Below are positions 17,633 to 48,500 of a DNA stretch of 64,000 bases, piece after piece; position 1 is the first letter of the stretch; every line of letters starts with the position of its first letter. A program made the position numbers and the translations under genes. Source of the stretch: Botryllus schlosseri (taxonomy: Eukaryota); the NCBI GenBank assembly GCA_051294905.1, contig CM119371.1, positions 1,552,001 to 1,616,000 on the forward strand. The letters run 5' to 3'. Below the pieces are notes generated by a model. That model searched no databases and was not told where the DNA came from. It saw only the letters and a program-made list of their open reading frames with translations.

Positions 17633-20108
17633 TTCCTTCCTGACGCGATAGCGACAATTGAAGCAAGTACACTTCTTTCTGACGATAAAAAACGTGAAGA
17701 CATAGCATTTTATCAGGATCAAAGGGGTCCGAGATTAGCAACGATCGGTGGCAAAGATAAAGTGTTGAAAGCGAAAATCATGCTACAAAAGAGACGACCA
17801 TGAGTGCAAGAGAGTCTGCACCAGCATCAAGTAGCGAAGGTGAATTTACAGAGAGCTCATCTATATCTTCACAGGTAGTTGACACTTCTCACAGCACTGA
17901 TTTAGAACTTGCACAGTCGACATCTGGTGATTCCGCTAAATTCGTGACTCTAAAAGCTGCTGTAAACCTATTCAGCGACGAAGACCTATGCCAGGTTTTT
18001 GATCCCTTGAAAGTCAGTGATAATGCCGCTACCATGATAACTGCAGCACTGATTAAAGCTTGCGATGGCAACCCTAATGACTTCCATCTTTCAAGATCTG
18101 GGACCTATCGACGACGCATTGCAAATCGTTTGAAAATTTCCGAATCTATCTTTGAAAAAATATCCACCAATCCACCAGAGCACATTGCATTGCACTGGGA
18201 TGGAAAGCTCACTAAGAGTCGTCTAGGATATCAATTTGAGGCCTTGGCAGTGCTCGCATCGTCTGCGTATTCCGGCGCATTTAAGAAAGGGAAACTTCTT
18301 GGCATTAAAACTCTGGAAAGTGCTACAGGAAAAGCACAGGCTGATGCATCATTTGAACTGCTGGAACTTGGGAATTTAACAAAATCTGTTAGACCTCTTG
18401 TGTTTGACACAACATCCTCAAACACTGGTAAAAACAAAGGTGCGGTTCCGTTACTTGAAGAATTGATTAACAGGAAAGTTTTCTACAATGCCTGTCGCCA
18501 TCATATTTATGAACTGGTCATTCGAGAGGTTTGGAAGTGTTTGTTTGGATCGACAACCACAGGCCCTGAAAACACGGATTTTAATACCTTCAAGAAGAAG
18601 TGGAAACATATTGATAAATCAAGAAGCTATAAAACGCTGAAGTTTATTGAAGGCAGCTGGTTGACGATGAAAGCTGATGAAGCAAAGCAAGAAATAATTC
18701 CACTGATGAAACCCAATGATGGAAAGCAGAAAGAAATCTTGATAAGAGATGACTACAGAGAATGTGCAACAGGCACCTTGGCGATTTTGGATGACAAATA
18801 TGTTGATCATCGTTTTCGCAAGCCTGGTGCTACTCATAGCGCTAGATGGATGAGTCAAGTCCTGTACTGTCAAAAAATGTTCATGTGGAATGAGCAAATG
18901 GACTATTCTGAAGAGTTCATTGAAAAGTTGGAACGAATCAATACATTCATTGCTTTGTTTTATGTTCCAGCTTGGTTGAAAACTGGTATTGCATGTGACG
19001 CACCTTGGAATGATCTCAAATTCCTTCATGACAAGAAAAACTTTTCAATATGCGATCTCACTGTTGCTGATGTGGCATACAAGAAATTGCGAAAACATCA
19101 TTGGTATCTAGCTGAGGAAATGGTGGTATTTACCATGTTCTCGGCTAATCCAAAGATTCCTGACAAACTGAAGGAAGCGATGGCTGCTATATTGCTGAAA
19201 ATGCCAATCCCTGAAAAATTTCGCAGAGGTATGCCTCTCAGTCTGATCTCTGACTCTGTCTCTGAGTCAATGAGTATGGTCGATTTGATTGGGCCAGAAT
19301 CGTGGTTTCTATTTGATGCTATACATGTGGAACATGATTGGTTGAGTCTTCCAGTTTCGGAATGGCATACTGATCCAGATTTCGTGACTGCTCAAGAATT
19401 TGTGAATACTGTTGAAGTAGTTAATGATTCAGCAGAGCGTATGGTAAAATTGAATACCGTCTATGCTGCGTTCATAACGAATGACAAAAAACAGCGAGCG
19501 AGCCTCCTACAAGCTGTGGAAGATCACCGGAACAGATATGCAGATTTCTCGAAAGCAACCATTTCATCCACCTGATTTATGTAATATTTTGCCTAGTTGA
19601 TCTCTTTCTTTGCCTTATTTTTTCGTTTCCTGTGATGTTTATTATGTGGCTGTGAGTGGATGTTACATTTACAGTTGTATTCTCGCACATGGGGATCCAG
19701 GAAATTGATGAACAGTGCCGGGTAGGTTTGAGGGGTGTAGGATATGTGATCCAACAAAATGACTATCAGTTTTAGGTAGTTTTGAGCAGTTCTAAGGCAG
19801 TGTGGGACATGGAATGATATCCTGAACTAGGAATGCCTTATATGGTGGGGTTTTGTAGCACCCCAAACCGCAACAGCTGCATAAATCCATGTTATATGTC
19901 ACTTTAACTAGGCTAGGTAAAATCGTGACCCTCTGATTTTAGGGGAATCCCCTATTTTCAGCTGCTATTCTTCCAGCTCAATGTGCACACGGATGCAGGG
20001 GACGAGTTACAAAAAAAAGTAGCCAGAATATGTTTTTAAGGTATAAGGCATGGGAATCGGACTGAAAACCTGGAATTTTTGAAAGTCGGTCAATTCTGAA
20101 CAACCCTA
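17633..20108 (+). mobile_element. Truncated hATm-like DNA transposon (3' end retained)
   Basis: Transposase followed by ~530 bp of non-coding DNA ending ...CAACCCTA (TAGGGTTG terminus). The 5' side abuts a MITE-derived fragment. Confidence 0.65.
17639..19575 (+). pseudogene. hAT-superfamily (hATm-like) DDE transposase, 5'-truncated, frameshifted at ~17800
   Basis: The 591-aa ORF has LHWDGK, VFDTTSSNTG, ACRHH (CxxH), PGATHSARWM, HHWYL and VVNDSAER motifs (D/D/E triad present). Upstream 17639-17803 encodes EDIAFYQDQRGPRLATIGGKD in a different frame ending in TGA at 17801. Confidence 0.8.
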
Positions 20109-28130: not shown

Positions 28131-29319
28131 AGATTACCAACTTAATCTGCGTTTAATCAACTCATATGTCTGTTACTGTGTGTTTGAGGTGCCACTACTG
28201 CCTCTGACTGTTATTTATCTGTTCAGATACGTTGTCTCAGCAAGTAGCCCTTCCTAGAGGGAGCCGTCTAGGTTCATTCTGCTGGGAATTTCCTGGAACT
28301 GGAAATGGTGAGTATATAGTATATTTATTAGATTACCGCGGAGTTTCCCAATAAAGTGGCAGCTGACAAAGTTGGACAGAACTGGGAAGAAAGCTCTGTA
28401 GTTTAGACGAGATCGTATATCGTAGATTGAACTAGTTTGTCGTCTCTATAAATTGTTTAATATAATCTTTCTGTTTAGGTGCAGTATTTCTACGACTGTA
28501 CCGGAAAAGGACTACGAGATTGCAGTCCGATCTGTGTTAAGCCATGCACCATCCAAAAACAAATCAGCAATACGAGGTAGATGCAATATTGATGTTCTAA
28601 ATATATTGCGCAGAGGAGATAATGGTTATATTGTGTGACCATACTCGTAGGCGCCAAATTTTATTTCTACATAGGGTGACCAGATGAAACAAGGGGGTTT
28701 GAAATATAAAGCAGACAAGAATTAGTAGCCTGCAGATGATAGCAAACGAGAAAGCACGCATCCCAGGCCTACGATACGAATATTGTAGGCCCCGGCGCAT
28801 CTAATCAGTAATTCCTGAACTTGACTACAGCACAATGGGTTGGAACCTAGTCTAACAACACGACAGTTGCATGTTGAAATCCTGGATTACAATTTATTGA
28901 GGCGTTTCAAGCATTACTTTGTCGCCGCCTACAAAGCTGCGTATTCAATTATTTGCGCGTGTAGGTGTAGGCCTATTGGTTAATGGTAAATAGTTGGCAT
29001 TTACGCGATATCACGGACTCGCTCATTGACAGCGCTGATGTCGTATCAAAATGACCAGACAATAGAAATATACGAAAATTTGAAATCGCAGACGGCGGGC
29101 GTTTCAGCATATTGTATGGGGTGCCACCCCATAACTCGGCCCCTATGACCATGACGCTACTCAGTACTCATATATTCACCCATGTTTTACTTGCATGTCA
29201 GTTTTTTTCGTTTTCGTGGTCGTTAATTTTAGTACAAAAAGTAGTTCATTTGCAAAGTATATCATAATCATTTGAACGTGTCTACTTCAAGTTTTTTTGA
29301 AGACCCCCAGTGTCTACTG

Positions 29320-30409
29320 CAGAGGTCTCAAACTCAAATGTGCTCGCGGGCCAATTTTCCAGTTTTTACGCCGCCGCGGGCCGCAGCATTTATAGGGGTA
29401 TTCTATGTCTTTCGAAGTAGGCCTTATTTGGCGGGAATGAATTGTCCTATTGAAAGTGAGCCGATCCAGCAGAGTGACAGTAAACACACATCGTCAAAAT
29501 GTGATTTACTCTTGTATCAACTTAGGCCTGACACGAAAAGAATCATCACAATTATACCTATTTGAATAGAATTGATATATATTAATCATAATATATAGAC
29601 ACCATGTGGGTGGACAAAAAGCTATCGGGTTATAATTTTGGAGCTACTATGGATATTTTTAATTTAACAGATTGATAATAGAGACTTATCTGATATCAAA
29701 ACATTTTAGGTTGAGCATGAGCATTGTAATTCCAATCCAGGATTCGGGTATACGTTTGATAAGTAGGCTATTAATCTCATGGCCAAATATCTTCAAATAT
29801 AGGAGCAGAAAAAAATATAAATATAACATAAATATATTAATGAATGTGTCCTAGTGACTGAAATGTCGGAACGCCGAACGCCCCATTGTTGTTACATCGT
29901 TGGAGCGTACCACTACGGTACTCGATACCTTTAAGTGGCCTTAATAACATGGTTTAGCGACCAAAAATGTATAACTAACAGATTGCCAATGGTTGCCATA
30001 CCTACTTGCTTAGTTAGCGAAATACCAAGCTGCGACCTTTTGATCTATTACTGTTCCCCTGATACGCGATTAGTTTGTTGCGTCCATGGTTCTAACAAAT
30101 GCACGGCATTCCGAGTCCACTTGAGTCATTTTCATTTTGCCACCGAGGGGTCAGGTTTTGTCATCATGAATTCGAAATGTGACGAAATAGTGAGTTTTCC
30201 ACTGCATGGTAGCGTTTGCTTTTGATTTGATAGTGAAGTTTGATGAATAGTTTCAGGCTTTCGGAGCAATTTAATAAGGAATTTTCACTTTATAACTTGA
30301 AAAGATATATGTGACACTTATATATTGTCAAATGATTTTGATTAAAAATCTAAAATGTCGTCGCGGGCCGCTCAAAATGCTATGGCGGGCCGCGTGTTTG
30401 AGACCTCTG
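29320..30409. mobile_element. Non-autonomous hAT (Charlie-like) element
   Basis: TIRs CAGAGGTCTCAAAC / GTTTGAGACCTCTG; perfect 8-bp TSD GTCTACTG (29312-29319, 30410-30417); GCGGGCCGC motifs. Confidence 0.92.
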
Positions 30410-31289
30410 GTCTACTGAATAAGGCTTGCTGGGCGTTCAGAATTGGTAGCATTTTAAAGGATTGTTTCATGTTTGCATGTAATGATTTTCTTGCTAATTA
30501 ATTTTTAGGACAAGAATGCAGAACAAGTCCATATCCTGTCTCAGCCTTGCCCAGACGATGACGAGGAAGAGGATGCTGTATAAAGTCATTTCCATCATGC
30601 CAACTTTTGGCCTCATTGCAAGTTAAACCTGTATGAAAGATTGAAGATATTTCCAGCTAAAGAAATTGTTGCTTGCAAGTGTGCATTGCTTGTTGTGGAA
30701 ATTTTTACAAGTTAAGGTTGAATCTGCTGATTATTATTTTCATCCGCTCAGGACACGGTATATACAATCAAAAAGGGGTGAAAGTGAGTCATCCTTGCTG
30801 CTCAAGTAAAGGTGGATCTGAATCTGACTACTTGAGTACTTTCCAAAAACAGAAAAAGTCGCACACTTGCAGGTTACTGCAGTTGGTAGGGGCCGCTTTA
30901 AAAATTGAGGGATATGCCACCGCGAAAAATATAATGGCACTCAACTATAGTGCGATTACTAAATTGCATTCACTATCGCTACATTATAGGGGCTATCTAA
31001 CTGGTTATGTCTCAAAAACCTAAGTAGAAGTAGTCACAAAAACATGCAACAAAAGTAGGCAAAATCTAAGTAGAAGTGCTTTGTTTGTTATACTGCACCT
31101 TGCACAATGCGTGACAGATCTGCACATAGAGGATGTCGGAACGGCCAATTGACCATAGTAAAACATCCTATTTTTTGTATCTCTATTCGTATTACCTCTC
31201 CACCTTCAATATTTGTCATCTTAAATGTCAACGTCAACTAGTGTGCATGTAAGTAGTATAGTCGATCGCTCGCATGCGGCCATGGGGTT

Positions 31290-31730
31290 CTTATGGGCGG
31301 GGTGGCGATTCGCCTGGAAACCCGGGGTGGCGATTCGCCTTTTTAGACCCCCCTCTGGGCCGCGATTCGCCATGTGTTCTTATGGGTGCGGTCGTGATTC
31401 GCCTTTTCGGGTATAGGCTGCGGCGGTGAGGTGTCTGAAAACCCGGGGTGGTGACTCGCCTTTTTTGCTATAGGCCGCGGTCGTGATTCGCCGTGAAAAC
31501 TCGTGGTCGTGACTCGTTTTTTTTGCTATAGGTGGTGGCGGTGATTCGCCATGTGTTCTTATGGGTGCGGTCGTGATTCGCACTTTCAGGCATCTCTCGC
31601 ACGTCGTACTTTCGCGTGTAGGCTGTGGCGGTGATTCGCCTGTCGTGTATTCTTACGGGATCTGTGGTGATTCGCCATGTGTTCTTATGGATGCGGTCGT
31701 GATTCGCACTTTCAGGCATCTCTCGCGCGG
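31290..31730. repeat. GC/CpG-rich subterminal array of GTGATTCGCC-like motifs (mirror at 45060-45500)
   Basis: More than ten G(T/C)GA(T/C)TCGC motifs; higher-order repeat ATGTGTTCTTATGG at 31372, 31551 and 31677. Confidence 0.85.
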
Positions 31731-34700
31731 TGTTGAATATGTACGAGTCACCAACAATAACCGCACAAACGGAAACGTGGCTTGCAAGAGGATTAAGCAG
31801 TGCGTGCGACCAATATTTCGAATGACCCGCGCGCTGAATTGTTTCCGTGCAGTCGTGTGCTACTATCGATTATTACACTAGATCAGTCAGTGTGAAATAG
31901 TTTGCTAAATCTAGGAATCAGTCGCATGGTGTTACTTTAGTAATTAGTTTACCACAGAGCCGGCGTAGCCGGTGATTCGAATACCGACAAATTTTCACTT
32001 ATTTCTGACCCAACCCTAATCCTCTGTGAAGTTGACGCTTATTCAAAAAGGTGTGAAATAATTGTAAAATCCTAATCCGAAACCGATTATTTCGACTTTG
32101 GCGTAGTGCGCATTGAAATAGGATTGACAAACATGACTAGCAACTTCCCCCACAGTCCCGTTTCGATATTATACACACACTGATTTGAAACAAGTAATGT
32201 AACATTACAACTCTATTCCCGATCCAGCTTTCCGTTTGTCAAAGAGACATTTTAACATCTTACCATACTCAAAAGAATTACTCACAACATTACCAATTGT
32301 TAAAAATCTAGTTTTAGGTAATATTTCGGTAATTAGTTTACCATAGAACCGGCGTAGACGGTGATTCGAAAACCAACTATTTGACGCTTTCTGGTGCTTG
32401 CTATATGTTTTTACACTTCGAACGTGGTGGACTTTAGTTGCGTGATAAGAATATTCAACCAATGTGTCAATTTGTCAACTCGAAATGAAACTTACTACAC
32501 AGCTCAAGTTGATTCGTATCTGAATGTGTTAATTCGGTACAATTCTAATTATTTTGAGAAATCTTTTCGTGATCTTTTGATTCGACCGTAACCTGAATAT
32601 TACTGACGCCGACTTTCAGCCACATCGAATTATTCGCACATTCCACGACGCTGTTTTCACACTTATAGAATCAATACCAACTATAATTCTACAAGAATCA
32701 AGAATCACAAGTATGTGTATTATACAGTTATTGTCTTTCTCAACACGAAATCAAACTCTTAACAAAAACACGCATCTTATCACTCGTCAACTCTATCATG
32801 AAAAGCCTCGAGTCCTTATTATCAAAAATGTTATAGCGCGGTGTCGGAATCCATTCGCGGGATGTACTAAAGGTAAATCCAGATAATCCAAAATGAAATA
32901 TTTGGACTTTGACATAATCTGAATTGAAATATATTGACAAACATGACTACCAACTTTGATCCAGTCACATTTCAAGATCATACTTTGAAACAATCCTTGA
33001 AACTTACAACTCTATTCACGATCCTGCTTTCCGTTTGTCAAAGAGATATTTCAATATCGTACCATACTCAAAAGAATTATTCACAACATTAACAATTGTT
33101 AAAAATCTAGTTTCACTTACTTGATTATATCACTACAACTCATAAATTTGAAATAATTCATCCTGGTTGTACTCGTATGATCGGTCTTTTTTTTATTCGA
33201 TTGTAAAGGTCGTTACTATTCTGAAGACAAAGTATTTACTAATCGGTGCATATACGATTTGACTTGAACATATTATATTTTGAGTATACGAGATTTGAAT
33301 GTCTGAACAATAACTGACTAATAATTTATCACAATTAAATCCGTATATTACAGCGTAAAAGATATTTGAATGTCAGCAACTCGGTAAGGTCATAGTTACT
33401 ACCACATTACCTAATTTACCCGACCAACTCGTCATGATCATTCCTGAAATCAACACAAACATGACTACTGACTTGAGTTAACCACAAAACAGCATCAAGT
33501 TTTAAATCCACTTGTAGCTTACGGCTTATTTGAATGCGGGTTATGTTTTGTTGTAATTGAGTGTACGGAAATAGTATTACGTCTCGACATCTCACCATCT
33601 TACCATATTCAAAGAGTCAACCACGAAAACATTGTCAAGTAAATCCGTTTGTAACTTACCCGACCAACTCAAACAGTATCAGTATGAAAAACAGCCAAAC
33701 ATACACGAATCCATACAATCACTAAAACCTAAAATTCATAACAAGCTTGGTTGTATTCATATCCATACACATCTTTTTTTATTCAACTTGAAAAGTCGTT
33801 ACTATTCTGTAAGATAGAGGAATTACTACGCGGTATATTCTGCAAGACAAACTAATTACTACTCGGTATATTTTGTAAGACAAAAGTAATTACTTCTCAG
33901 TGTCGGCGACTTGAGATTAACATAATATGTTTGAGTATACGAGATTTGAAAGTCTGACCAACGTAGTTGAGAATTCATTTCTTACAATCGAACGATGGTG
34001 TTATATTCAAAGTTATCATGCTGTGAACATAAGGATTGACACATTGATTTGACATATGAGATTTTGTAATAGTTGATCATTACTTTATTATTAAATTATT
34101 TGCGTTAATTAGACCCGGCGTTGTGGTAAATGTTATGACAGCAACAAACTTTTCAGTACCAATGTTATTAACATATTAAGCTGTAAAACTATGTGTGTCT
34201 GAAATGTTCTTGATAGGAAAATTACTCCACCTTGGTAAAAATCACTCTGCGTATCGCGGATATCAGAAAATATTTCCAGTAACCAAGACTAAAGATGAAA
34301 CGACAATATCGGTATTATTACATTCAACAATCAGTACAATTATTAAAATCTATCGTTTGCGATAAACAGCACTAAAAATGTAATAATTCCAGTATTCATA
34401 CATTAAACCTCCGATACAAAATGCTTTATTATCCCGATTCCCAACGGGTAATTGAAACGACTAAGTGTAGAATCAGTATATCACAGTATCGTTACTATTG
34501 AATCCAACGATTTATTGTCGGAATTTGTGACAGAGAATTGAAACATATGCACTTTACAGAGTGTGAAAATATCACTTTGAGTATCGAGTACCGTTCGAAG
34601 CTAGCGATCAATTCTTAATCATTTCAGTAACTCACCATTGTGCGTGCTAAATGTAAAATATCGCGAGGTTATACACTCTAAGACTTAGATCATTACAAAA

Positions 34701-36619
34701 GTAAATTGTGATATGTTTGTTAGATGCATCCAATTCAGTTAGAAATGTCTGGTGCACAACAATCGTAATATCAAAAAAGTACTTGCTACACTGTTATTTG
34801 CTAAACGTGTTTTGCATTGTTGTTCATTTGTAGTATTGATTGAAATTGTTCTTGAACCCTCAAATAATAATTCCTGACATGAAACCAAGCCGCTGAAAGT
34901 CGCTACCATCACGAAGATACAATGTGTACGATGTTTGTCAAATGTGTCCTACCTGGCCAACAGAAAACAATTTTCACTCACTTGAAATGAAACCAATGTG
35001 ATGGTCTCCATTCGATATTTTGTTTGTGGCAAATACTTTGCAATGAACACATTTGCGTGGTTGAGCTTTACATCATCAAGCTGTTATTTGTAAATCAAGA
35101 TTTCGGTAAACTTGTAAATGTATCGTTTAACTAACCGACATTCAGTGATTGGGGAACATACCAGACGATACACATCCATCTCCGAAATACTGCGTTGATC
35201 TTAATTTCCATCGTCGTGATAATCGAAGTACATTTCTTTCGAATTCGTAACAACCGACTATGACATGATAAATTTTTGACAAGTTATGCTTAGAAGAATG
35301 GTTGCATATCGCGAAAAAAAAAATATACCACTCATATTGATACTATTACTCCATTGATCGATATTTTCAAACGAGTAAAATTTATTACTTGAGTTTCCCC
35401 GCTTAATGTAAATGAAAACTCAACCGTCTTTTAACATCACAAAGACATTGATAAAAAGTAGGCAATCAAACACAACACTTTGTACGACACTAATTATTGT
35501 TCCACACATCTCATTTCATACTAAGTGTATACGAAAGATATTTATGACACATGAAAATATTCCCATGCTACAAACCTGTACAATGATTGGTGGTGCTTTC
35601 AAACTGTTTCGATATCACAAGAACTTTATTGTCTGAATGGGTGTTCATGTATCTTAATAATCAAATAGTTCAACACAGAACTAGTACGAACAGAAACATC
35701 AGAGTTGTTTACACAAAAGTTTGTATGTGCACAGTATGCGAATACCATGTGTAAGTCCAGCACAATTGTGGTATCCATCCGATTTAGTTAACACAATTTA
35801 CGACACCGAGGTCGCCTCATCTTTCGTAAGACAACAAACCAAGGCTTCAGGATATGTCCATGTCATAGCAATAAATCAGCTACTCCAACAACAGAGTACA
35901 TATGTTTTCTAGTTACGGTGCTTACATCTTACACACAAATCAATCTGCTGTGCTAACGAAAAGTGCTGAGTCATCACATGGTTGTCCTCACAACAATACA
36001 ACTAAAACATACTATCATACAAAATGGCCGTTATAGTCACCAATGGTACATCGTACAAGTAACAAGTCTCGAGAATCCAGTTATTCAAAAAACGTGAAAG
36101 TATTTCTACACCAAGTCGTTATGTTGACGAAGACGTATATTGTAATATCATGATCGATTTGTATTCGTTGACCGCAAAATGTCACTACTCTAAATAATTA
36201 TTTTTCACTCAAACACAAAAACCTACTTGTCGCCATTGGTTTTCATCAAGCACGAGTTCAAGAAACTTACTTACTACGACATGAATTGTTATTTTATGTT
36301 GTGTAAATAGGTAATAATTAATTCAAGTAACACTATATCAACATCATCGAGCTGTGCGAATAGATTTACATGTGGTCTTGTGGTTTTAATCGAAGTACAC
36401 AGTACGGTCTAATGTAGAGTCATCTCTATTGTACAGCAACTCGGTAGTCGAAATGCATTAAAATTTAAACAGCGATCTTGTTTCATCACGCGAAAAATAT
36501 GTTCACTATCGCGATACTTTGCACAGGACGTGTAAATCCTTTTCACACTCGTAATAGTATACCAACGGCTACCGGCGACAACGTTTAACAACACCAACGA
36601 CACTAAACATACGATACCT

Positions 36620-37195
36620 ACCCAAGTAAAATTTCCATTTTCACCTGGAGGTCAGCCGTTACCTGAGTAAAAATACCATTATTCTTTGGAGATTTATCGT
36701 TTAATCAGAGTAACAAAACATTTTCACTTGGGGTTCCATCGTTTCCCAGAGTAACAAACCCCCCTTTCCTTTGGGAATCTATTTTTTTTTCCGTGGGTAA
36801 CAAATCTTTTTCACTTGGAAATATCTTTTTTCCTCGGGTAACAAACCTTTTTCGCTTGGAAACATATTTTTTTCCCTGGGGAGCAAACCTTTTTCACTTG
36901 AAAATATATTTTTTCCTCGGGTAACAAACCTTTTTCACTTGGAAATATATTTTTTCCTCGGGTAACAACCCATTTTCACTTGGAAATATATTTTTTCCCC
37001 GAGCAACAAGCCTTTTTCACTTGTGAATATATTTTTTTCCCCTGAACAACAAACCATTTTCACTTGGCGGTCCGTCGTTTACCTGAGTAAAAATATCATT
37101 TTCCTTTGGAGATCTGGCGTTTACCCAGTGTAACAACACATTTTCTCTTGGTCATCTAGCTTTTCCTAGAGTAACAAAACCATTTTCATTTTGAA
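36620..37195. repeat. ~41-bp minisatellite (mirror at 39600-40172)
   Basis: About 14 head-to-tail units of TTTTCACTTGGAAATATATTTTTTCCTCGGGTAACAAACC, most conserved in the centre. Confidence 0.9.
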
Positions 37196-38454
37196 ATCTG
37201 ACAAACACACCTGACAATTTGATATTTTTGTATATTGTTACAACGGATAGCGACAAAATATACACCAACAACAACTCCAATACATTTGTGTAATCGCATA
37301 TTCACTTGTGCTGATGCAACCCATCAAAATCATCGGTTACCCACATGCAATGTACTGTTGTACATCGACGTTTATGTTTTTGGAAAATTGGACAATAGGC
37401 TTCGATAGTTCTGTGATGTCCGGGTTCGTGCTTTGGATTTTCCAGAGTCAAAATGTCTGAATAAAACACCTCCTTGACGATGGTTGGTATGTGGATAACG
37501 GTGTTCGGAAAACGGTTGGATTTATGTCACCCATCGCGATAATAATTCCAGGTCGAGATTTCCCCCGCGTGTTTACTATATTGTGTCTTTATTGGTCATG
37601 TATGTCTCGACATTCAGTTTGAAATCGGAAACCCTGATAAAGTATGTAACCGGATCCGGATATCAACTCTGAATTGATAAACCAATGAACAATATTCAAA
37701 GTAAACATGTTACACCCTGTGTTTCCACGAAAAAATACCATCCAGATATACGTCGCGCTTGTTTGCCCACATCAGTATACGCGTAAATGGAGGTGTGTGA
37801 CATTGCATGCAATGTGTTGGTATACAAACATCGATCCACAGACATTATCATAGCCGGTAGTTTTGATGTAGATCGAATGTCATCACACCCGATAACAATG
37901 TCATACCAATAAGCCACATTGCAATGACTCTGAGTCCGCGCTATTACATCGATATTTCGGCACCGTTCACTGATTTACTCGATGGTGTTATCGTGTTGTA
38001 ACATTACAAGATAGTCATGGCCCTATCTCCGGACAGACCACCCAGATCAATTGGATACATCGGTCAATATCCATCGTGTTGTCGACACCGAAGTTTTCTG
38101 CTGAGACTGCAGCGTTTGACCAAGGTGAACTATCGAATCACGGGTGCTCGAAATGATTGCGATCAGTCTTTCACTAAATCACGATGCATGGATGTCACTA
38201 CTCCCACATAACGACTCGTGATAAATATCGTGAACAGTGATTCTGCAAATCTCGGACTGATACTGTGATCCAATAAGGTGTGTTTCTGTGGAATGAAGAC
38301 TGCAATCGTACACCACAATAGAACACTACCTCGCGATTTCACACGCAATCATAAAACACGTCATCGTAAGGGTCCAGTTCGTCCGGTGACATTTCGAAAC
38401 GGTCGTCGCCACAAGAGATCGGTATCATTTTGAAACGACATCGTCACAAGTCTA

Positions 38455-39078
38455 TTGACGTCGATTCTGTTGGTCATGTCAATCCCTTTCACAATCCACC
38501 GTTTTTCAACTCCCCGCACCATAGTGTTACGACACAGACAAGAAGCGTCGGTGGAAATAATAAAACACGGAAAGCACACTTTGGTGTTATTTGACATGGA
38601 TTTTACACCCGACGAACCTTACATTCGAGCGATGCATTGGAATGACGCTTGTATTATTGACGTAGAAGGAACAGAAATGTATCGATTTATTGGTTTCGTA
38701 CATATCCAACAAAAACCAGGGTATGTGATTGTGCGTGGTTCGCATATTCGACTGTGAACGCTCTATTGGTATATGCTGTATAGTTCACTTTCACCGTCGT
38801 GCGAATAACCCATGTTACGGTTCGATGTTTGTGTGTCTGTATGTCACGCTTCAGATTGACTCAGAGTCATTGCAATGTGGCTTATTGGTATGACATTGTT
38901 AACGGGTGTGATGACATTCGATCTACATCAAAACTACCGGCTATGATAATGTCTGTGGATCGATGTTTGTATACCAACACATTGCATGCAATGTCACACA
39001 CCTCCATTTACGCGTATACTGATGTGGGCAAACAAGCGCGACGTATATCTGGATGGTATTTTTTCGTGGAAACACAGG
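38455..39078 (+). pseudogene. Putative spliced cargo gene of unknown function crossing from the spacer into the right arm
   Basis: ORF 38455 ends ...QQKP GG|GTATGT (donor at 38721). Acceptor CTTCAG|A at 38854 completes GGA and continues in frame as LTQSHCNVAYWYDIV...WYFFVETQ. Confidence 0.45.
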
Positions 39079-42000
39079 GTGTAACATGTTTACTTTGAAT
39101 ATTGTTCATTGGTTTATCAATTCAGAGTTGATATCCGGATCCGGTTACATACTTTATCAGGGTTTCCGATTTCAAACTGAATGTCGAGACATACATGACC
39201 AATAAAGACACAATATAGTAAACACGCGGGGGAAATCTCGACCTGGAATTGTTATCGCGGTGGGTGACATAAATCCAACCGTTTTCCGAACACCGTTATC
39301 CACATACCAACCATCGTCAAGGAGGTGTTTTATTCAGACATTTTGACTCTGGAAAATCCAAAGCACGAACCCGGACATCACAGAACTATCGAAGCCTATT
39401 GTCCAATTTTCCAAAAACATAAACGTCGATGTACAACAGTACATTGCATGTGGGTAACCGATGATTCTGATGGGTTGCATCAGCACAAGTGAATATGCGA
39501 TTACACAAATGTATTGGAGTTGTTGTTGGTGTATATTTTGTCGCTATCCGTTGTAACAATATACAAAAATATCAAATTGTCAGGTGTGTTTGTCAGATTT
39601 CAAAATGAAAATGGTTTTGTTACTCTAGGAAAAGCTAGATGACCAAGAGAAAATGTGTTGTTACACTGGGTAAACGCCAGATCTCCAAAGGAAAATGATA
39701 TTTTTACTCAGGTAAACGACGGACCGCCAAGTGAAAATGGTTTGCTGTTCAGGGGAAAAAAAATATATTCACAAGTGAAAAAGGCTTGTTGCTCGAGGAA
39801 AAAATATATTTCCAAGTGAAAATGGGTTGTTACCCGAGGAAAAAATATATTTCCAAGTGAAAAAGGTTTGTTACCCGAGGAAAAAATATATTTTCAAGTG
39901 AAAAAGGTTTGCTCCCCAGGGAAAAAAATATGTTTCCAAGCGAAAAAGGTTTGTTACCCGAGGAAAAAAGATATTTCCAAGTGAAAAAGATTTGTTACCC
40001 ACGGAAAAAAAAATAGATTCCCAAAGGAAAGGGGGGTTTGTTACTCTGGGAAACGATGGAACCCCAAGTGAAAATGTTTTGTTACTCTGATTAAACGATA
40101 AATCTCCAAAGAATAATGGTATTTTTACTCAGGTAACGGCTGACCTCCAGGTGAAAATGGAAATTTTACTTGGGTAGGTATCGTATGTTTAGTGTCGTTG
40201 GTGTTGTTAAACGTTGTCGCCGGTAGCCGTTGGTATACTATTACGAGTGTGAAAAGGATTTACACGTCCTGTGCAAAGTATCGCGATAGTGAACATATTT
40301 TTCGCGTGATGAAACAAGATCGCTGTTTAAATTTTAATGCATTTCGACTACCGAGTTGCTGTACAATAGAGATGACTCTACATTAGACCGTACTGTGTAC
40401 TTCGATTAAAACCACAAGACCACATGTAAATCTATTCGCACAGCTCGATGATGTTGATATAGTGTTACTTGAACTAATTATTACCTATTTACACAACATA
40501 AAATAACAATTCATGTCGTAGTAAGTAAGTTTCTTGAACTCGTGCTTGATGAAAACCAATGGCGACAAGTAGGTTTTTGTGTTTGAGTGAAAAATAATTA
40601 TTTAGAGTAGTGACATTTTGCGGTCAACGAATACAAATCGATCATGATATTACAATATACGTCTTCGTCAACATAACGACTTGGTGTAGAAATACTTTCA
40701 CGTTTTTTGAATAACTGGATTCTCGAGACTTGTTACTTGTACGATGTACCATTGGTGACTATAACGGCCATTTTGTATGATAGTATGTTTTAGTTGTATT
40801 GTTGTGAGGACAACCATGTGATGACTCAGCACTTTTCGTTAGCAAAGCAGATTGATTTGTGTGTAAGATGTAAGCACCGTAACTAGAAAACATATGTACT
40901 CTGTTGTTGGAGTAGCTGATTTATTGCTATGACATGGACATATCCTGAAGCCTTGGTTTGTTGTCTTACGAAAGATGAGGCGACCTCGGTGTCGTAAATT
41001 GTGTTAACTAAATCGGATGGATACCACAATTGTGCTGGACTTACACATGGTATTCGCATACTGTGCACATACAAACTTTTGTGTAAACAACTCTGATGTT
41101 TCTGTTCGTACTAGTTCTGTGTTGAACTATTTGATTATTAAGATACATGAACACCCATTCAGACAATAAAGTTCTTGTGATATCGAAACAGTTTGAAAGC
41201 ACCACCAATCATTGTACAGGTTTGTAGCATGGGAATATTTTCATGTGTCATAAATATCTTTCGTATACACTTAGTATGAAATGAGATGTGTGGAACAATA
41301 ATTAGTGTCGTACAAAGTGTTGTGTTTGATTGCCTACTTTTTATCAATGTCTTTGTGATGTTAAAAGACGGTTGAGTTTTCATTTACATTAAGCGGGGAA
41401 ACTCAAGTAATAAATTTTACTCGTTTGAAAATATCGATCAATGGAGTAATAGTATCAATATGAGTGGTATATTTTTTTTTCGCGATATGCAACCATTCTT
41501 CTAAGCATAACTTGTCAAAAATTTATCATGTCATAGTCGGTTGTTACGAATTCGAAAGAAATGTACTTCGATTATCACGACGATGGAAATTAAGATCAAC
41601 GCAGTATTTCGGAGATGGATGTGTATCGTCTGGTATGTTCCCCAATCACTGAATGTCGGTTAGTTAAACGATACATTTACAAGTTTACCGAAATCTTGAT
41701 TTACAAATAACAGCTTGATGATGTAAAGCTCAACCACGCAAATGTGTTCATTGCAAAGTATTTGCCACAAACAAAATATCGAATGGAGACCATCACATTG
41801 GTTTCATTTCAAGTGAGTGAAAATTGTTTTCTGTTGGCCAGGTAGGACACATTTGACAAACATCGTACACATTGTATCTTCGTGATGGTAGCGACTTTCA
41901 GCGGCTTGGTTTCATGTCAGGAATTATTATTTGAGGGTTCAAGAACAATTTCAATCAATACTACAAATGAACAACAATGCAAAACACGTTTAGCAAATAA

Positions 42001-45000
42001 CAGTGTAGCAAGTACTTTTTTGATATTACGATTGTTGTGCACCAGACATTTCTAACTGAATTGGATGCATCTAACAAACATATCACAATTTACTTTTGTA
42101 ATGATCTAAGTCTTAGAGTGTATAACCTCGCGATATTTTACATTTAGCACGCACAATGGTGAGTTACTGAAATGATTAAGAATTGATCGCTAGCTTCGAA
42201 CGGTACTCGATACTCAAAGTGATATTTTCACACTCTGTAAAGTGCATATGTTTCAATTCTCTGTCACAAATTCCGACAATAAATCGTTGGATTCAATAGT
42301 AACGATACTGTGATATACTGATTCTACACTTAGTCGTTTCAATTACCCGTTGGGAATCGGGATAATAAAGCATTTTGTATCGGAGGTTTAATGTATGAAT
42401 ACTGGAATTATTACATTTTTAGTGCTGTTTATCGCAAACGATAGATTTTAATAATTGTACTGATTGTTGAATGTAATAATACCGATATTGTCGTTTCATC
42501 TTTAGTCTTGGTTACTGGAAATATTTTCTGATATCCGCGATACGCAGAGTGATTTTTACCAAGGTGGAGTAATTTTCCTATCAAGAACATTTCAGACACA
42601 CATAGTTTTACAGCTTAATATGTTAATAACATTGGTACTGAAAAGTTTGTTGCTGTCATAACATTTACCACAACGCCGGGTCTAATTAACGCAAATAATT
42701 TAATAATAAAGTAATGATCAACTATTACAAAATCTCATATGTCAAATCAATGTGTCAATCCTTATGTTCACAGCATGATAACTTTGAATATAACACCATC
42801 GTTCGATTGTAAGAAATGAATTCTCAACTACGTTGGTCAGACTTTCAAATCTCGTATACTCAAACATATTATGTTAATCTCAAGTCGCCGACACTGAGAA
42901 GTAATTACTTTTGTCTTACAAAATATACCGAGTAGTAATTAGTTTGTCTTGCAGAATATACCGCGTAGTAATTCCTCTATCTTACAGAATAGTGACGACT
43001 TTTCAAGTTGAATAAAAAAAGATGTGTATGGATATGAATACAACCAAGCTTGTTATGAATTTTAGGTTTTAGTGATTGTATGGATTCGTGTATGTTTGGC
43101 TGTTTTTCATACTGATACTGTTTGAGTTGGTCGGGTAAGTTACAAACGGATTTACTTGACAATGTTTTCGTGGTTGACTCTTTGAATATGGTAAGATGGT
43201 GAGATGTCGAGACGTAATACTATTTCCGTACACTCAATTACAACAAAACATAACCCGCATTCAAATAAGCCGTAAGCTACAAGTGGATTTAAAACTTGAT
43301 GCTGTTTTGTGGTTAACTCAAGTCAGTAGTCATGTTTGTGTTGATTTCAGGAATGATCATGACGAGTTGGTCGGGTAAATTAGGTAATGTGGTAGTAACT
43401 ATGACCTTACCGAGTTGCTGACATTCAAATATCTTTTACGCTGTAATATACGGATTTAATTGTGATAAATTATTAGTCAGTTATTGTTCAGACATTCAAA
43501 TCTCGTATACTCAAAATATAATATGTTCAAGTCAAATCGTATATGCACCGATTAGTAAATACTTTGTCTTCAGAATAGTAACGACCTTTACAATCGAATA
43601 AAAAAAAGACCGATCATACGAGTACAACCAGGATGAATTATTTCAAATTTATGAGTTGTAGTGATATAATCAAGTAAGTGAAACTAGATTTTTAACAATT
43701 GTTAATGTTGTGAATAATTCTTTTGAGTATGGTACGATATTGAAATATCTCTTTGACAAACGGAAAGCAGGATCGTGAATAGAGTTGTAAGTTTCAAGGA
43801 TTGTTTCAAAGTATGATCTTGGAATGTGACTGGATCAAAGTTGGTAGTCATGTTTGTCAATATATTTCAATTCAGATTATGTCAAAGTCCAAATATTTCA
43901 TTTTGGATTATCTGGATTTACCTTTAGTACATCCCGCGAATGGATTCCGACACCGCGCTATAACATTTTTGATAATAAGGACTCGAGGCTTTTCATGATA
44001 GAGTTGACGAGTGATAAGATGCGTGTTTTTGTTAAGAGTTTGATTTCGTGTTGAGAAAGACAATAACTGTATAATACACATACTTGTGATTCTTGATTCT
44101 TGTAGAATTATAGTTGGTATTGATTCTATAAGTGTGAAAACAGCGTCGTGGAATGTGCGAATAATTCGATGTGGCTGAAAGTCGGCGTCAGTAATATTCA
44201 GGTTACGGTCGAATCAAAAGATCACGAAAAGATTTCTCAAAATAATTAGAATTGTACCGAATTAACACATTCAGATACGAATCAACTTGAGCTGTGTAGT
44301 AAGTTTCATTTCGAGTTGACAAATTGACACATTGGTTGAATATTCTTATCACGCAACTAAAGTCCACCACGTTCGAAGTGTAAAAACATATAGCAAGCAC
44401 CAGAAAGCGTCAAATAGTTGGTTTTCGAATCACCGTCTACGCCGGTTCTATGGTAAACTAATTACCGAAATATTACCTAAAACTAGATTTTTAACAATTG
44501 GTAATGTTGTGAGTAATTCTTTTGAGTATGGTAAGATGTTAAAATGTCTCTTTGACAAACGGAAAGCTGGATCGGGAATAGAGTTGTAATGTTACATTAC
44601 TTGTTTCAAATCAGTGTGTGTATAATATCGAAACGGGACTGTGGGGGAAGTTGCTAGTCATGTTTGTCAATCCTATTTCAATGCGCACTACGCCAAAGTC
44701 GAAATAATCGGTTTCGGATTAGGATTTTACAATTATTTCACACCTTTTTGAATAAGCGTCAACTTCACAGAGGATTAGGGTTGGGTCAGAAATAAGTGAA
44801 AATTTGTCGGTATTCGAATCACCGGCTACGCCGGCTCTGTGGTAAACTAATTACTAAAGTAACACCATGCGACTGATTCCTAGATTTAGCAAACTATTTC
44901 ACACTGACTGATCTAGTGTAATAATCGATAGTAGCACACGACTGCACGGAAACAATTCCGCACGCAGGTCATTCGAAATATAGGTCGCACTGCTTAATCC

Positions 45001-45538
45001 TCTTGCAAGCCACGTTTCCGTTTGTGCGGTTATTGTTGGTGACTCGTACATATTCAACACCGCGCGAGAGATGCCTGAAAGTGCGAATCACGACCGCATC
45101 CATAAGAACACATGGCGAATCACCACAGATCCCGTAAGAATACACGACAGGCGAATCACCGCCACAGCCTATACGCGAAAGTACGACGTGCGAGAGATGC
45201 CTGAAAGTGCGAATCACGACCGCACCCATAAGAACACATGGCGAATCACCGCCACCACCTATAGCAAAAAAGACGAGTCACGACCACGAGTTTTCACGGC
45301 GAATCACGACCGCGGCCTATAGCAAAAAAGGCGAGTCACCACCCCGGGTTTTCAGACACCTCACCGCCGCAGCCTATACCCGAAAAGGCGAATCACGACC
45401 GCACCCATAAGAACACATGGCGAATCGCGGCCCAGAGGGGGGTCTAAAAAGGCGAATCGCCACCCCGGGTTTCCAGGCGAATTGCCACCCCGCCCATAAG
45501 AGCCCCATGGCCGCATGCGAGCGATCGACTATACTACT
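38858..45538 (-). repeat. Right arm of the giant inverted repeat (6681 bp)
   Basis: Begins GACTCAGAGTCATTGC, the reverse complement of GCAATGACTCTGAGTC ending at 37936. The length difference is explained by a 4-bp indel plus two compensating 1-bp homopolymer indels. Confidence 0.95.
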
Positions 45539-48500
45539 CATGTATTTTTACTGTCATTGAAGAACTTCAACCTGCCACTTTTCGAATTTTTGTTACCGTC
45601 CCATTTCAATGGTATTATCATATTGTGAACGTACTTTTTCAACTTGATTTGACGGTTGTTGCTTTGAATCAATGCTGTGCTTTTTTCTACTTCACTGCAA
45701 TTTGTGATGTAGGCCTATCGCTATGTCTTGTTGCATGATTATTTTCAAAACTTGCCAACCTCTGTATTTCTGATACATTTGTGTATGTGTAATGCGGTGC
45801 ATGTCTTGTTTTCATATTCTCATTAGCAGAATTCTGGGTAATTGCTTCGACCTATCTTCATTTTTGAACACTTGCCCATGTGTCGTATTCTGTAATCCTC
45901 CCAGTGTGCATGCTTCTTCACCTTGATTGTTTGACAGTTGTTGCTTTGACTTTTTGCTGTGCTTTTGCTGCAATTTGTACTATTGCCTATAATGATTTTC
46001 AAAACTTGCCAACCTCTGGTGTTTCTGATATCGTTGTGTATGTGTAATGCGGTGCGTGTCTTGTTTTTATTCTCATTGACGAAATTGAAGGTAATTGCTT
46101 TGAACTTTATTTTTATTTTTCAACACTAGCCCATGTGTGGTATTCTTCCCAGTGTACATACTTCGTTAGTCGTCTTATTCTTAGCCCAATATTCTTAGCC
46201 CAATTGATTAACTGATCCAACGACTGCTTGTGATATTTTTGAGTACACCTGCTGCTTTATTGTATCTCTTCAACTTGAGTGAGTGATTGATTTTGACGTG
46301 ATTTACGGCCGTTGTTAATTTTACTCGTTGCTGCTTAGTTTTTATTGCTGACAATTTGATAATATAAGCTTTTTGCCTGAAAATTAATCTTGTTTAAGTG
46401 TATTTGTGCGTCGCCTAACCTGTGGTAAGGAAATATGCAGGTCCAGGAGCTAGCTAGTATTCAGAGGGTTGATCAGTGGATAGTCTATGGATATCGGTCC
46501 CAACCGGACTTTGTCCCTACAGTGGCCAGGAAGTGACTCAGAAATGACTTGATGGATGGTCAGTGGTCACCCACTGGATACCACCAGGAGTCGACACGCT
46601 CGGTGCAACCGGATAGCGGTAGGATGACTCTGTGCCAAATGACAAGTTATCCGACGGGTATCCGCTTGCCGTAATGTGTTTGCTGGGTGGTCATAGAAGC
46701 AAGAAAAATCGTTGGCTCGAAGTACAGCGACCGTCATTCTACAGTATAATATCAAGGTCATGAAATATCTTGGTAATGAAAGTTTTAAACTCGGTAAGTA
46801 GGCCATACCTTTCAACACTTTACTGAAGTCAACTGTACTAAAGATAACATAACATAACATAACATTGTTGGGTTATTATTTTTATCTGAACAAGTCACAC
46901 ACAATGTACAATGCGATAAGACACAATGCGATGTCATGAACAGATAGGAGGATATCGTACGACACGCATCAGTAGAGAATAGAGAAAGATCACTAGATCA
47001 TGATGGAATATGGAGAATCCTACATAATTGACATCACAATGAATTTCATATACTACACTACATTCATTTTCAACAAAATTTTCAATTTTATATTTTTTGG
47101 GTTTTTTTGAAACATTTAATTTCTATCATAATCCATCACACAAAACGTAAAGACAGCACAAAGTACACACTGCACAGTGCACAGTGCACATCTAAGAATA
47201 TAACAATTTTTTTCATTTTTCCATATTTATGATTTTTATGTAATTTTTATTATAATCAATTATTTTAGAGGTGTAAGACGATGGTATATGTTTATTTTAT
47301 CCCGCGGGTCGATCCCAACTTGCGAGTAAATCCTTATAATAGCAAAAAATTCAACAGGATGACGGCTTGGACTCTACTGTAGTCAAACAGCCTTCGCATT
47401 CAAATCCATTCAACCCTCAGTAATTTGTGCCGTAAAATATTCCTCTTCGAAAATATATAGGTTCGACCTGACATTTATTGCATTTCCATTGTTTTCGTCG
47501 ATTTGTGAAGCTTTATGCAACTGTTTTGGTTACTTAATTGTAAAATGCATATTAGAAATAGTTTCGTGAAATTGCATCGATTGAACATGAAATAGTCAGT
47601 TTGAATTCTAAAACGAATAGTAGTAATTCTGCTCTGCACGTCTCAATTTTGTTGATGACGATTGGCTCTTGTACACGAGTAACAATGTTGCATCTACTGC
47701 CTTTTCAGAAACTCCCTGAAAAACAAATATCTCTGAATAAATCACTATCCCAGTTAATCAATTACGTCAGCAAACTATTCGAACTATAAGCAGAAAATTA
47801 ACTGTTCACACGGGTATGTCATAACAATGCACAAAATAGAATTCGACTTGCTGTAGAGTACCTGGGATCAGAGTCGGATAAATCGTAGGGATTGAATCTA
47901 CAGGACGATTCGGCATTTAAATTTTCGCGAGACGATTCTCACGTATCGTCGGCACACAATCCAATACACGGTAACATATTTAGTCGGTACACGAATTTCA
48001 TGAAAATAAACCTGCAGACAACACATCGTATCGCGGGAGCGGTATTGGCTGTGACGGTGTACTTGCTAGAGGACTTTGTTAACATTTCGATGAGAGAAAT
48101 TGCGGTGCTGTTAACAATATCGAGTATCAATGACACTCGAAAAGTAGCTATCGGCTTGTTTTATGGAAAGCCTAAAATATTAGTGACGATAAGCGTACTT
48201 CTGCCAGAATTGGATAATTAGATAATTCTAGTTGTCTAATTAGACTAATTAGAGCAAATGCCGGTAATATAACTTGAATCTATTTTGTGAAATGATTCTC
48301 TGCACTAATTCTAATCAAATTGGTAAATAATTTATATTTTCTCATTTTAATTCAAACCCTATCTCTGGTTTTCCTGTGAATGCTACTGAGAGAATTATGT
48401 AGTGCGAAACGAGCCAAGCTTTTTGGACAGACATTTGCTATTATCATGTTGATTTGATAGTAACGGAACTGGATTCAATGACCTAGTTTTTTGCGGACTC

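Follow-up and report, generated by a model that had tools for sequence, protein, structure and literature searches.

Mavericks (Polintons) are usually described as low-copy, gene-dense, virus-like elements. According to Barreat and Katzourakis (PMC8097293), intact vertebrate Mavericks span 12,723–24,620 bp (16,862 ± 1,678 bp) and have terminal inverted repeats (TIRs) of 46–1,447 bp (mean 402 bp), elements of ~17 kb carry two gene modules, and the number of copies per vertebrate genome has a mean of 22 and a maximum of about 287. The end-motif criterion used there is (AGT)2...(ACT)2 or (AG)3...(CT)3, with 5'-(AGT)2//(ACT)2-3' the commonest form and target-site duplications (TSDs) that are perfect and 6 bp long, and the terminal repetition is expected to have a role in the jumping-back step of protein-primed replication (PMC8097293). 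Kojima and Bao also give 6 bp as the characteristic Polinton TSD (PMC10045372). Butterfly polintons are described in a preprint as having TIRs of ~2 kb that contain hexon and adenain genes (bioRxiv 10.1101/2025.02.07.637071). Here we describe a 14,287-bp palindromic element at positions 31252–45538 of a 64,000-nt stretch of the Botryllus schlosseri genome (GCA_051294905.1, contig CM119371.1, positions 1,552,001–1,616,000 of the forward strand; hereafter the window, to which all coordinates refer).

The element has the ends and the TSD of a Maverick and no Pfam match to a Polinton gene, and it consists almost entirely of two giant inverted arms that are nearly identical. We favor the reading that it is a recently inserted, non-autonomous giant-TIR element of a high-copy family, mobilized by Maverick/Polinton-type integration machinery, and we hold this reading with about equal measures of confidence and doubt.

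Architecture of the element

The left arm (31252–37936, + strand) is 6,685 nt long and opens with (AGT)2, and the right arm (38858–45538, − strand) is its 6,681-nt reverse complement and ends in ACTACT. Together the arms account for 93.6% of the length of the element and enclose a unique centre, or spacer, of 921 nt (37937–38857, + strand). A repeat search gave the inverted repeat as four collinear blocks, which BLAST and MAFFT merged into one alignment with 99.64% identity over 6,686 columns. The arms differ by 18 substitutions (14 transitions and 4 transversions) and three indel events (4, 1, and 1 nt), and the substitutions are spread along the arm with 8/18 falling within the outermost 584 nt. 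A first-pass annotation of the window, made from the sequence alone, had described two 6.68-kb arms that make up ~94% of the element around a 921-bp spacer, and the repeat search, BLAST, and MAFFT all reproduced that layout.

At their inner ends the arms terminate at an 11-nt near-palindrome, GACTCTGAGTC (37926–37936, mirrored at 38858–38868), which may be chance or may have provided the microhomology for a fold-back. BLAST found no other sequence in the window that resembles the element, and no paralogous empty site was found within the window. Two other histories of the layout were considered and set aside. Separate head-to-head insertions of two elements were rejected because a scan with the terminal 18-mer found no internal terminus. 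Later insertion of the centre into a perfect palindrome would need an 11-bp TSD with one mismatch and is less parsimonious than mirrored arm ends.

Ends and target-site duplication

The outer termini read AGTAGTATAGTC... on the left and ...GACTATACTACT on the right. The left end begins with AGTAGT (31252–31257, + strand), the (AGT)2 Maverick-type end motif, and the right end finishes with ACTACT (45533–45538). Two copies of CATGTA flank these termini directly (31246–31251 and 45539–45544); they are identical, and the duplication stops at 6 bp, as the seventh base differs. Direct reading of the sequence bears out the termini and the perfect CATGTA TSD that had been annotated at first pass. The 14,287 bp went in as a single unit at cuts staggered by 6 bp. 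The terminal 18-mer has two matches in the window with up to three mismatches allowed, one at each outer end (0.02 expected).

The pairing of (AGT)2//(ACT)2 with a 6-bp TSD is the published Maverick signature (PMC8097293), in agreement with the earlier description of the ends as Polinton/Maverick-type. Other groups were compared with the same features. IS3EU/GingerRoot elements also have a 6-bp TSD, but their termini are TA..TA or occasionally TG..CA, and the AG..CT termini found here rule them out despite the agreement in TSD length (PMC10045372). Dada elements, as characterized in PMC3706591, lack TIRs, insert in genes for small RNAs (tRNA, snRNA), and make short TSDs, with one 7-bp example; they are ruled out by the 6.7-kb TIRs and by the finding of no tRNA or Rfam family within the window. 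Judged by the bases at its borders, the two-part end signature fits Mavericks and none of the 6-bp-TSD alternatives checked.

The total length of 14,287 bp falls in the range of intact Mavericks, ~1.5 standard deviations under the mean (PMC8097293), so the near-genome length claimed in the first-pass annotation holds. A length inside this range is suggestive of a packaging constraint, without proving one. A terminal 26-mer, a terminal 20-mer, and a subterminal 26-mer each had no match in the viral, metagenome, and prokaryote contig collections.

Coding content

The longest open reading frame (ORF) in the element that starts with ATG, GTG, or TTG encodes 106 aa, and the longest stop-to-stop frame (133 aa) falls among the subterminal, GC-rich repeats. 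Of the 72 stop-to-stop frames of at least 45 aa in the left arm and centre, none reached the Pfam cut-off. The best weak match, an arm frame to TEX13B_C (E 0.0043), and the others fell under their cut-offs and at chance level for 76 queries, and the arm frame matching zf-H2C2 (E 0.019), also under the cut-off, is without the His/Cys pattern. In the remainder of the window, 1/75 frames of at least 75 aa matched a Pfam family, and this was an unrelated RVT_1 fragment. DNA_pol_B_2, rve, and related Pfam families were found neither in the element nor elsewhere in the window. The packaging ATPase, the adenain-like protease, and the capsid proteins likewise had no Pfam match in the window, a result that is weaker for the capsids, as Pfam cover of Maverick capsids is uncertain. 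Within the window and by Pfam, the absence of Polinton genes stated in the first-pass annotation is therefore upheld. Its further statement that no ORF exceeds ~106 aa was correct as a size limit, but it overlooked a conserved ORF of 93 codons in the centre.

This ORF (38476–38757, + strand) runs from ATG to TGA and was translated inside the frame 38434–38754. In a search of 1.84 billion representative sequences, P0099 was the one strong relative (E 3.6e-31), next to three weak matches to repeat proteins, and in a search of 90% clusters four clusters matched. Identity to the ORF of the window is 99% for P0105, 65% for P0106 and P0099, 61% for P0103, and 60% for P0107. The ORF and its relatives are all 91–98 aa long, have a common Met and a common end, and align gap-free over 91 columns, of which 48 are invariant and clustered in blocks. 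As a rough estimate, 60–65% amino acid identity corresponds to some 20% nucleotide divergence, at which neutral DNA should hold indels and stops. The database of predicted ORFs favors open frames, but that bias does not account for the block pattern or for a start and an end common to all. Openness and block conservation in diverged relatives suggest purifying selection. Because start, end, gapless length, and blocks have been kept despite 35–40% amino acid difference, we consider it quite probable that the ORF is a real orphan gene or was one until recently. This conserved small ORF speaks against the first-pass view of the centre as an inert spacer.

The 93-aa product has no Pfam family, and its best ESM Atlas score was 0.89, to unnamed bacterial clusters. 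One of five AF2 models was confident (pLDDT 73.4 vs 34–35) and had an eight-strand beta structure. The best structural matches were sandwiches of the HSP20/CS type, at background level (Foldseek E 0.022 in pdb and 0.0096 in BFVD, VIA Z 5.4), and any HSP20/CS likeness of the modeled fold is weak. Among viral contigs, 0 of 71 pattern matches were confirmed as relatives of the ORF. In prokaryote genome contigs, 1 of 59 was confirmed, a segment of a bacterial metagenome-assembled genome with 44% identity over 38 residues, and was taken as a WD40-like chance match. A likeness to WD40 proteins was not taken as homology, as the scores of P0100 and P0101 sum many repeats against one blade-like stretch.

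Repeats and composition of the arms

Each arm has three parts, a GC-rich outer ~480 nt, ~5.5 kb of AT-rich complex DNA, and an inner array of ~580 nt. GC content is 52–59% over the first 500 nt of the arm and 30–40% in the interior, and it is 43–46% in 250-nt windows of the centre region from ~37750 to 38750. CpG is undepleted in the element (observed/expected 1.2–1.4). The left subterminal array (31287–31709, + strand) consists of 10 copies of the 14-nt motif GGTSRTGATTCGCC (at most one mismatch), all in one orientation at a spacing of ~25–64 nt, and the right subterminal array (45082–45464, − strand) has nine copies of the same motif. All 19 matches to the motif in the window lie within ~460 nt of an element end (0.05 expected), and the array is a candidate set of protein-binding sites. 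At the inner end of the arm is a degenerate tandem array of 41–42-nt repeats (36619–37200, + strand) that is mirrored in the right arm. The AT-rich middle is mostly complex, non-tandem DNA with a few dispersed repeats, and the repetitive share of each 6.7-kb arm comes to ~0.46 kb of motif array and ~0.58 kb of 41–42-nt array.

Abundance and variation of the family

Part of the stretch was contained in 20 public runs from 10 studies, and six of these runs contained at least half of the sampled words; no RNA run was among those listed as containing it. We compared the contigs of four of 24 listed runs with positions 29000–48000: X1, from organism A and probably the source sample; X4, from a separate sample and study; X9, from organism B and the sole second-organism run compared; and the RNA run X24. 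Summed contig depth per bin, which is inflated by overlapping short contigs and is to be taken as an order of magnitude rather than a copy number, was 83,505–267,819 over the element bins (31536–45483) in X1, compared with 2,576–2,965 in the two bins to the right and 1,012 in the last bin. The corresponding values for the element and the two bins to its right were 73,037–229,965 and 1,893–3,471 in X4, and 82–875 and 14–24 in X9. Public-run contigs of two organisms cover the element, centre included, 30–100 times as deeply as its right flank. The bin that is almost wholly centre (37876–38509) had a depth of 136,664 in X1, as deep as the arms, 97,513 in X4, ~0.75 times the arms, and 81.8 in X9, clearly lower than the arms, and these arm/centre ratios are ambiguous because contigs that fit both arms may have been counted once or twice. 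The element belongs to a very abundant family, and the high repetition of its sequence in these contigs agrees with the mobile family anticipated by the first-pass annotation. In X24, of which ~6 in 100 of the run was read, element bins held 0–1.93 reads per strand class, too few to call expression.

Members of the family vary in sequence content. Some variants skip one 126-nt subterminal unit (joint 45076/45203), and others skip the 156-nt segment 35593–35748 or its mirror 41043–41198 (joints 35592/35749 and 41042/41199; five contigs in X1, also seen in X4). Both gaps are ordinary family polymorphism, and the 156-nt indel polymorphism predates the duplication of the arms, or their homogenization, in the present copy. 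One X4 contig (depth 304) joins 33803 to 42972, the mirror of 33822, with five T between and 22 letters on its shorter side. This joint is a weak hint of a shorter fold-back variant that turns at a 33-nt tandem repeat. In X9, two contigs (45539–45764, depth 2.2–2.4, ~93% alike) cease to match at 45539/45540, the right border of the element, and leave 120–130 nt beyond it unmatched; such stops could mark an orthologous site in organism B that is empty or otherwise occupied.

Divergence and age of the arms

The X1 contigs, flank contigs included, number 69,736 at 99% likeness or more, 84,838 at 95–99%, and 68,656 at 90–95%, and from this broad spread the family must be old or diverse. The two arms of the present copy differ by 0.27%. 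The left arm reads T at position 37543, where ~96% of the X1 depth and the right arm have another letter; at 39260 it is the right arm that departs from the left arm and the family majority. With a private change in each arm, the differences at these two positions represent true decay after duplication and not consensus error. The arms agree at 14/16 displayed arm variant positions, and at 13 of these 14 the majority of the X1 depth holds the other letter. Since the arms share minority letters at 13/14 sites, the family spread long before the two arms last had a common ancestor. This leaves two readings, a young palindromic variant limited to a subfamily or to this locus, or homogenization of the arms at each copying. 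In the second case, homogenization would come from a displaced single strand that folds into a panhandle or hairpin. The terminal repeats of adenoviruses stay identical through panhandle pairing.

Origin and mobilization

Under Maverick-type mobilization, which we favor, a retroviral-like integrase from an autonomous Maverick elsewhere in the genome would recognize the ends in trans, and the 14-nt array would supply candidate binding sites for it. The retained (AGT)2 may let the ends act as origins for the protein-primed polymerase of the helper. The giant arms would stem from an inverted duplication, by fold-back or template switch, of a ~7.6-kb precursor that was itself non-coding and comprised the terminus, 6.7 kb, and the centre. 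The first-pass annotation had instead derived them from one end of a Polinton copied back on itself, a proposal that the search of this segment does not support, as Pfam gave no Polinton gene remnant (0/72 frames) anywhere between the terminus and the far side of the centre, a span of 7.6 kb. Maverick TIRs measure at most 1,447 bp and the gene modules lie within ~17 kb (PMC8097293), so a stretch this long from an end would be expected to contain genes. An inverted duplication, by whichever polymerase, must accordingly have copied a precursor that was already non-coding.

In a bolder and unlikely version of this history, the family would be a true polintovirus satellite, that is, a gene-poor linear replicon of packaging size in which both ends are one helper-recognized origin and integration site. 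Its arms would be kept identical by hairpin folding of every displaced strand, the loop would contribute one small gene of its own, and the helper would be out-amplified by orders of magnitude. A satellite of this kind would be undescribed in animals.

Several points weigh against Maverick-type mobilization. Subterminal arrays of binding motifs are commoner in cut-and-paste transposons. The window shows no autonomous Maverick and neither an integrase nor a protein-primed DNA polymerase (pPolB). The end-motif statistics come from vertebrate Mavericks and may not be those of the host here. The TIRs of 6,685 and 6,681 nt are 4.6 times the longest in intact vertebrate Mavericks (1,447 bp), and the family is much more abundant than Mavericks are reported to be (mean 22 copies, at most about 287; PMC8097293). 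In organism B the centre is 3–6 times shallower than the arms, so relatives may vary in architecture, and the arm/centre junctions of other copies are not readable from these contigs, which are unitig-like and break at repeat borders.

Alternative explanations

The element might be a cut-and-paste transposon with very long TIRs, of a Foldback/Galileo-like habit but from another or unknown superfamily, in which case a transposase from autonomous copies would bind the 14-nt array and the Maverick-like ends would be coincidental. In hAT, CACTA, Mutator, and P elements, oriented subterminal arrays typically serve as binding sites for the transposase, and each end of the element carries 9–10 oriented copies of its motif. 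Long TIRs around a short centre are the Foldback/Galileo habit as described in the accessible part of PMC3573991, and high family abundance, unlike the copy numbers reported for Mavericks (PMC8097293), would also be explained. This account is made improbable by the end itself, which in both its (AGT)2/(ACT)2 motif and its perfect 6-bp TSD agrees specifically with Mavericks, and the other groups compared either end differently at the same TSD length (IS3EU/GingerRoot, TA..TA or TG..CA; PMC10045372) or lack TIRs (Dada; PMC3706591). In addition, only ~1 kb of the 6.7-kb arm lies in arrays, and the arms are not tandem-built. Foldback makes TSDs of 9 bp and Galileo of 7 bp, against the 6 bp found here.

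A rearrangement at this locus after insertion, the alternative already named in the first-pass annotation, was also weighed. A family member with short TIRs would have inserted, and a break or stalled fork inside it would then have been repaired in inverted orientation from the other end, primed by the TIR, with the right part exchanged for a mirror image of the left, so that the palindrome itself never moved. Such an event would explain why the arms, 0.27% apart, match one another so much more closely than either matches most family contigs and why rare variants are common to both arms at 13/14 displayed agreeing sites. The X4 contig that joins 33803 to 42972 hints at fold-backs at other points, weakly so with 22 letters on its shorter side. 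Yet the arms match right out to the terminal base on each side, with an intact TSD, as if the unit had moved whole, and a local repair would leave the near-Maverick length unexplained. In organism A, moreover, the centre is about as abundant as the arms, which fits two arms per centre only if contigs fitting both arms were placed once. We judge this history distinctly unlikely.

Strict copy-back, in which a defective genome is made directly from the end of an autonomous polintovirus during protein-primed strand-displacement replication, has a precedent among adenoviruses, whose incomplete genomes can carry long inverted terminal duplications. Ends, TSD, and near-genome length agree with such an origin, and both ends are one and the same end. 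The (AGT)2 repetition would suit protein-primed initiation (PMC8097293). The difficulty is the content of the arm, as pPolB, integrase, ATPase, protease, and any other Pfam remnant are absent from the 7.6 kb (0/72 frames), whereas with Maverick TIRs of 46–1,447 bp and ~17-kb elements that carry two gene modules a segment of this length should hold genes (PMC8097293). The copy is also young (arms 0.27% apart), so erasure of genes by decay is impossible, and we regard a direct copy-back origin as very improbable.

An assembly artefact, from a fold-back chimeric read or a collapsed repeat, is hardly credible: a high-copy family is hard to assemble and no contig or read was seen across the entire element among the public-run contigs compared, but the flanks are dissimilar and meet the canonical ends at an exact 6-bp TSD, where an artefactual fold-back would have mirrored the flank too, the 921-bp centre is asymmetric, and the arms are separated by 18 substitutions and three indels that include private changes in each arm relative to the family majority.

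Flanking sequence

The flanks had been called unique in the first-pass annotation, which is true within the window; in the public runs both flanks are repeats. The left neighborhood (29000–30267) is another very high-copy repeat, with a summed depth of 64,000–164,000 in X1 and X4 and a sequence unrelated to the palindrome. Directly to the right of the insertion is a degenerate tandem duplication of ~254 nt (45634–45891 and 45913–46146) with 84% identity. Farther right, a segment of ~70 nt (46908–46975) lies in a bin (46752–47385) that had ~800 RNA reads per strand class in X24, compared with at most 10 in any other bin, and thousands of reads continue into unlike sequence at 46975. Rfam had no family for this RNA-rich region, which resembles a brief match to some highly expressed RNA or repeat located elsewhere.

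Two other coding features lie in the left part of the window. An intact open frame of 604 codons (17761–19575, + strand) has no Pfam domain and 98 relatives at E ≤ 0.001, the best with 55% identity. These relatives are mostly unnamed, and those with names are 'uncharacterized' or 'Cc8K15.2-like' proteins of scattered invertebrates at ~30% identity (an aphid relative, limpet, brine shrimp, bee, Hydra, and Cotesia). The frame probably encodes a protein of an uncharacterized, widespread transposable element. The window start cuts a second frame (2–928, + strand) that is the C-terminal part of a non-LTR retrotransposon reverse transcriptase (RVT_1). Its relative P0109 is 96% identical, and more distant relatives carry an APE endonuclease domain; most are unnamed, and the named ones are from scattered invertebrates at ~30% identity.

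Comparison with known elements and significance

The element resembles Mavericks/Polintons in its (AGT)2...(ACT)2 ends, perfect 6-bp TSD, possession of TIRs, and total length (PMC8097293). As in butterfly polintons, its TIRs are extended inward past the usual few hundred bp and mirror internal sequence, but the butterfly elements have coding TIRs and keep the Polinton gene set, while the arms here are non-coding and make up 94% of the length (bioRxiv 10.1101/2025.02.07.637071). It further departs from Mavericks/Polintons in having none of the eight core genes, TIRs of 6,685 nt, a 14-nt array, far higher abundance, and an orphan 93-aa ORF. With copy-back defective genomes and the long inverted terminal duplications of adenoviruses it would share identical ends derived from one end, near-genome length, and dependence on a helper. 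The arms of those genomes are helper sequence, whereas the arms of this element are without helper genes, and the element is integrated and amplified as a family. Foldback and Galileo differ from it in their TSDs of 9 and 7 bp and their tandem-repeat arms, where the element has a 6-bp TSD, AGT-type ends, and mostly complex arms. It is like them in its very long inverted arms, short centre, some internal repetition of the arm, and high copy number (PMC3573991).

Our searches of open-access text brought up no account of Maverick derivatives that lack genes, are palindromic, or have giant TIRs, and Repbase/Dfam entries and supplements may hold some. The term 'non-autonomous Polinton/Maverick' was found in open-access text applied to Tlr1 only, and the accessible part of a review of giant transposons (PMC6431247) mentions no derivative of these kinds.

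If the reading that we favor is true, an abundant gene-less family with Maverick ends shows that Mavericks host non-autonomous parasites able to outnumber them, as other transposons and viruses do. Such a family would be natural material for two questions, namely which terminal sequences are required by the integrase and by the protein-primed polymerase, and whether packaging constrains element length. The conserved orphan ORF in the loop gives a handle on the part that the element itself plays in its spread. Inverted repeats as long (6.7 kb) and as alike (99.6% identity) as these could give rise to long hairpin RNA and to chromosome breakage, and a high-copy family of such palindromes would bear on genome stability and small-RNA silencing in the host.

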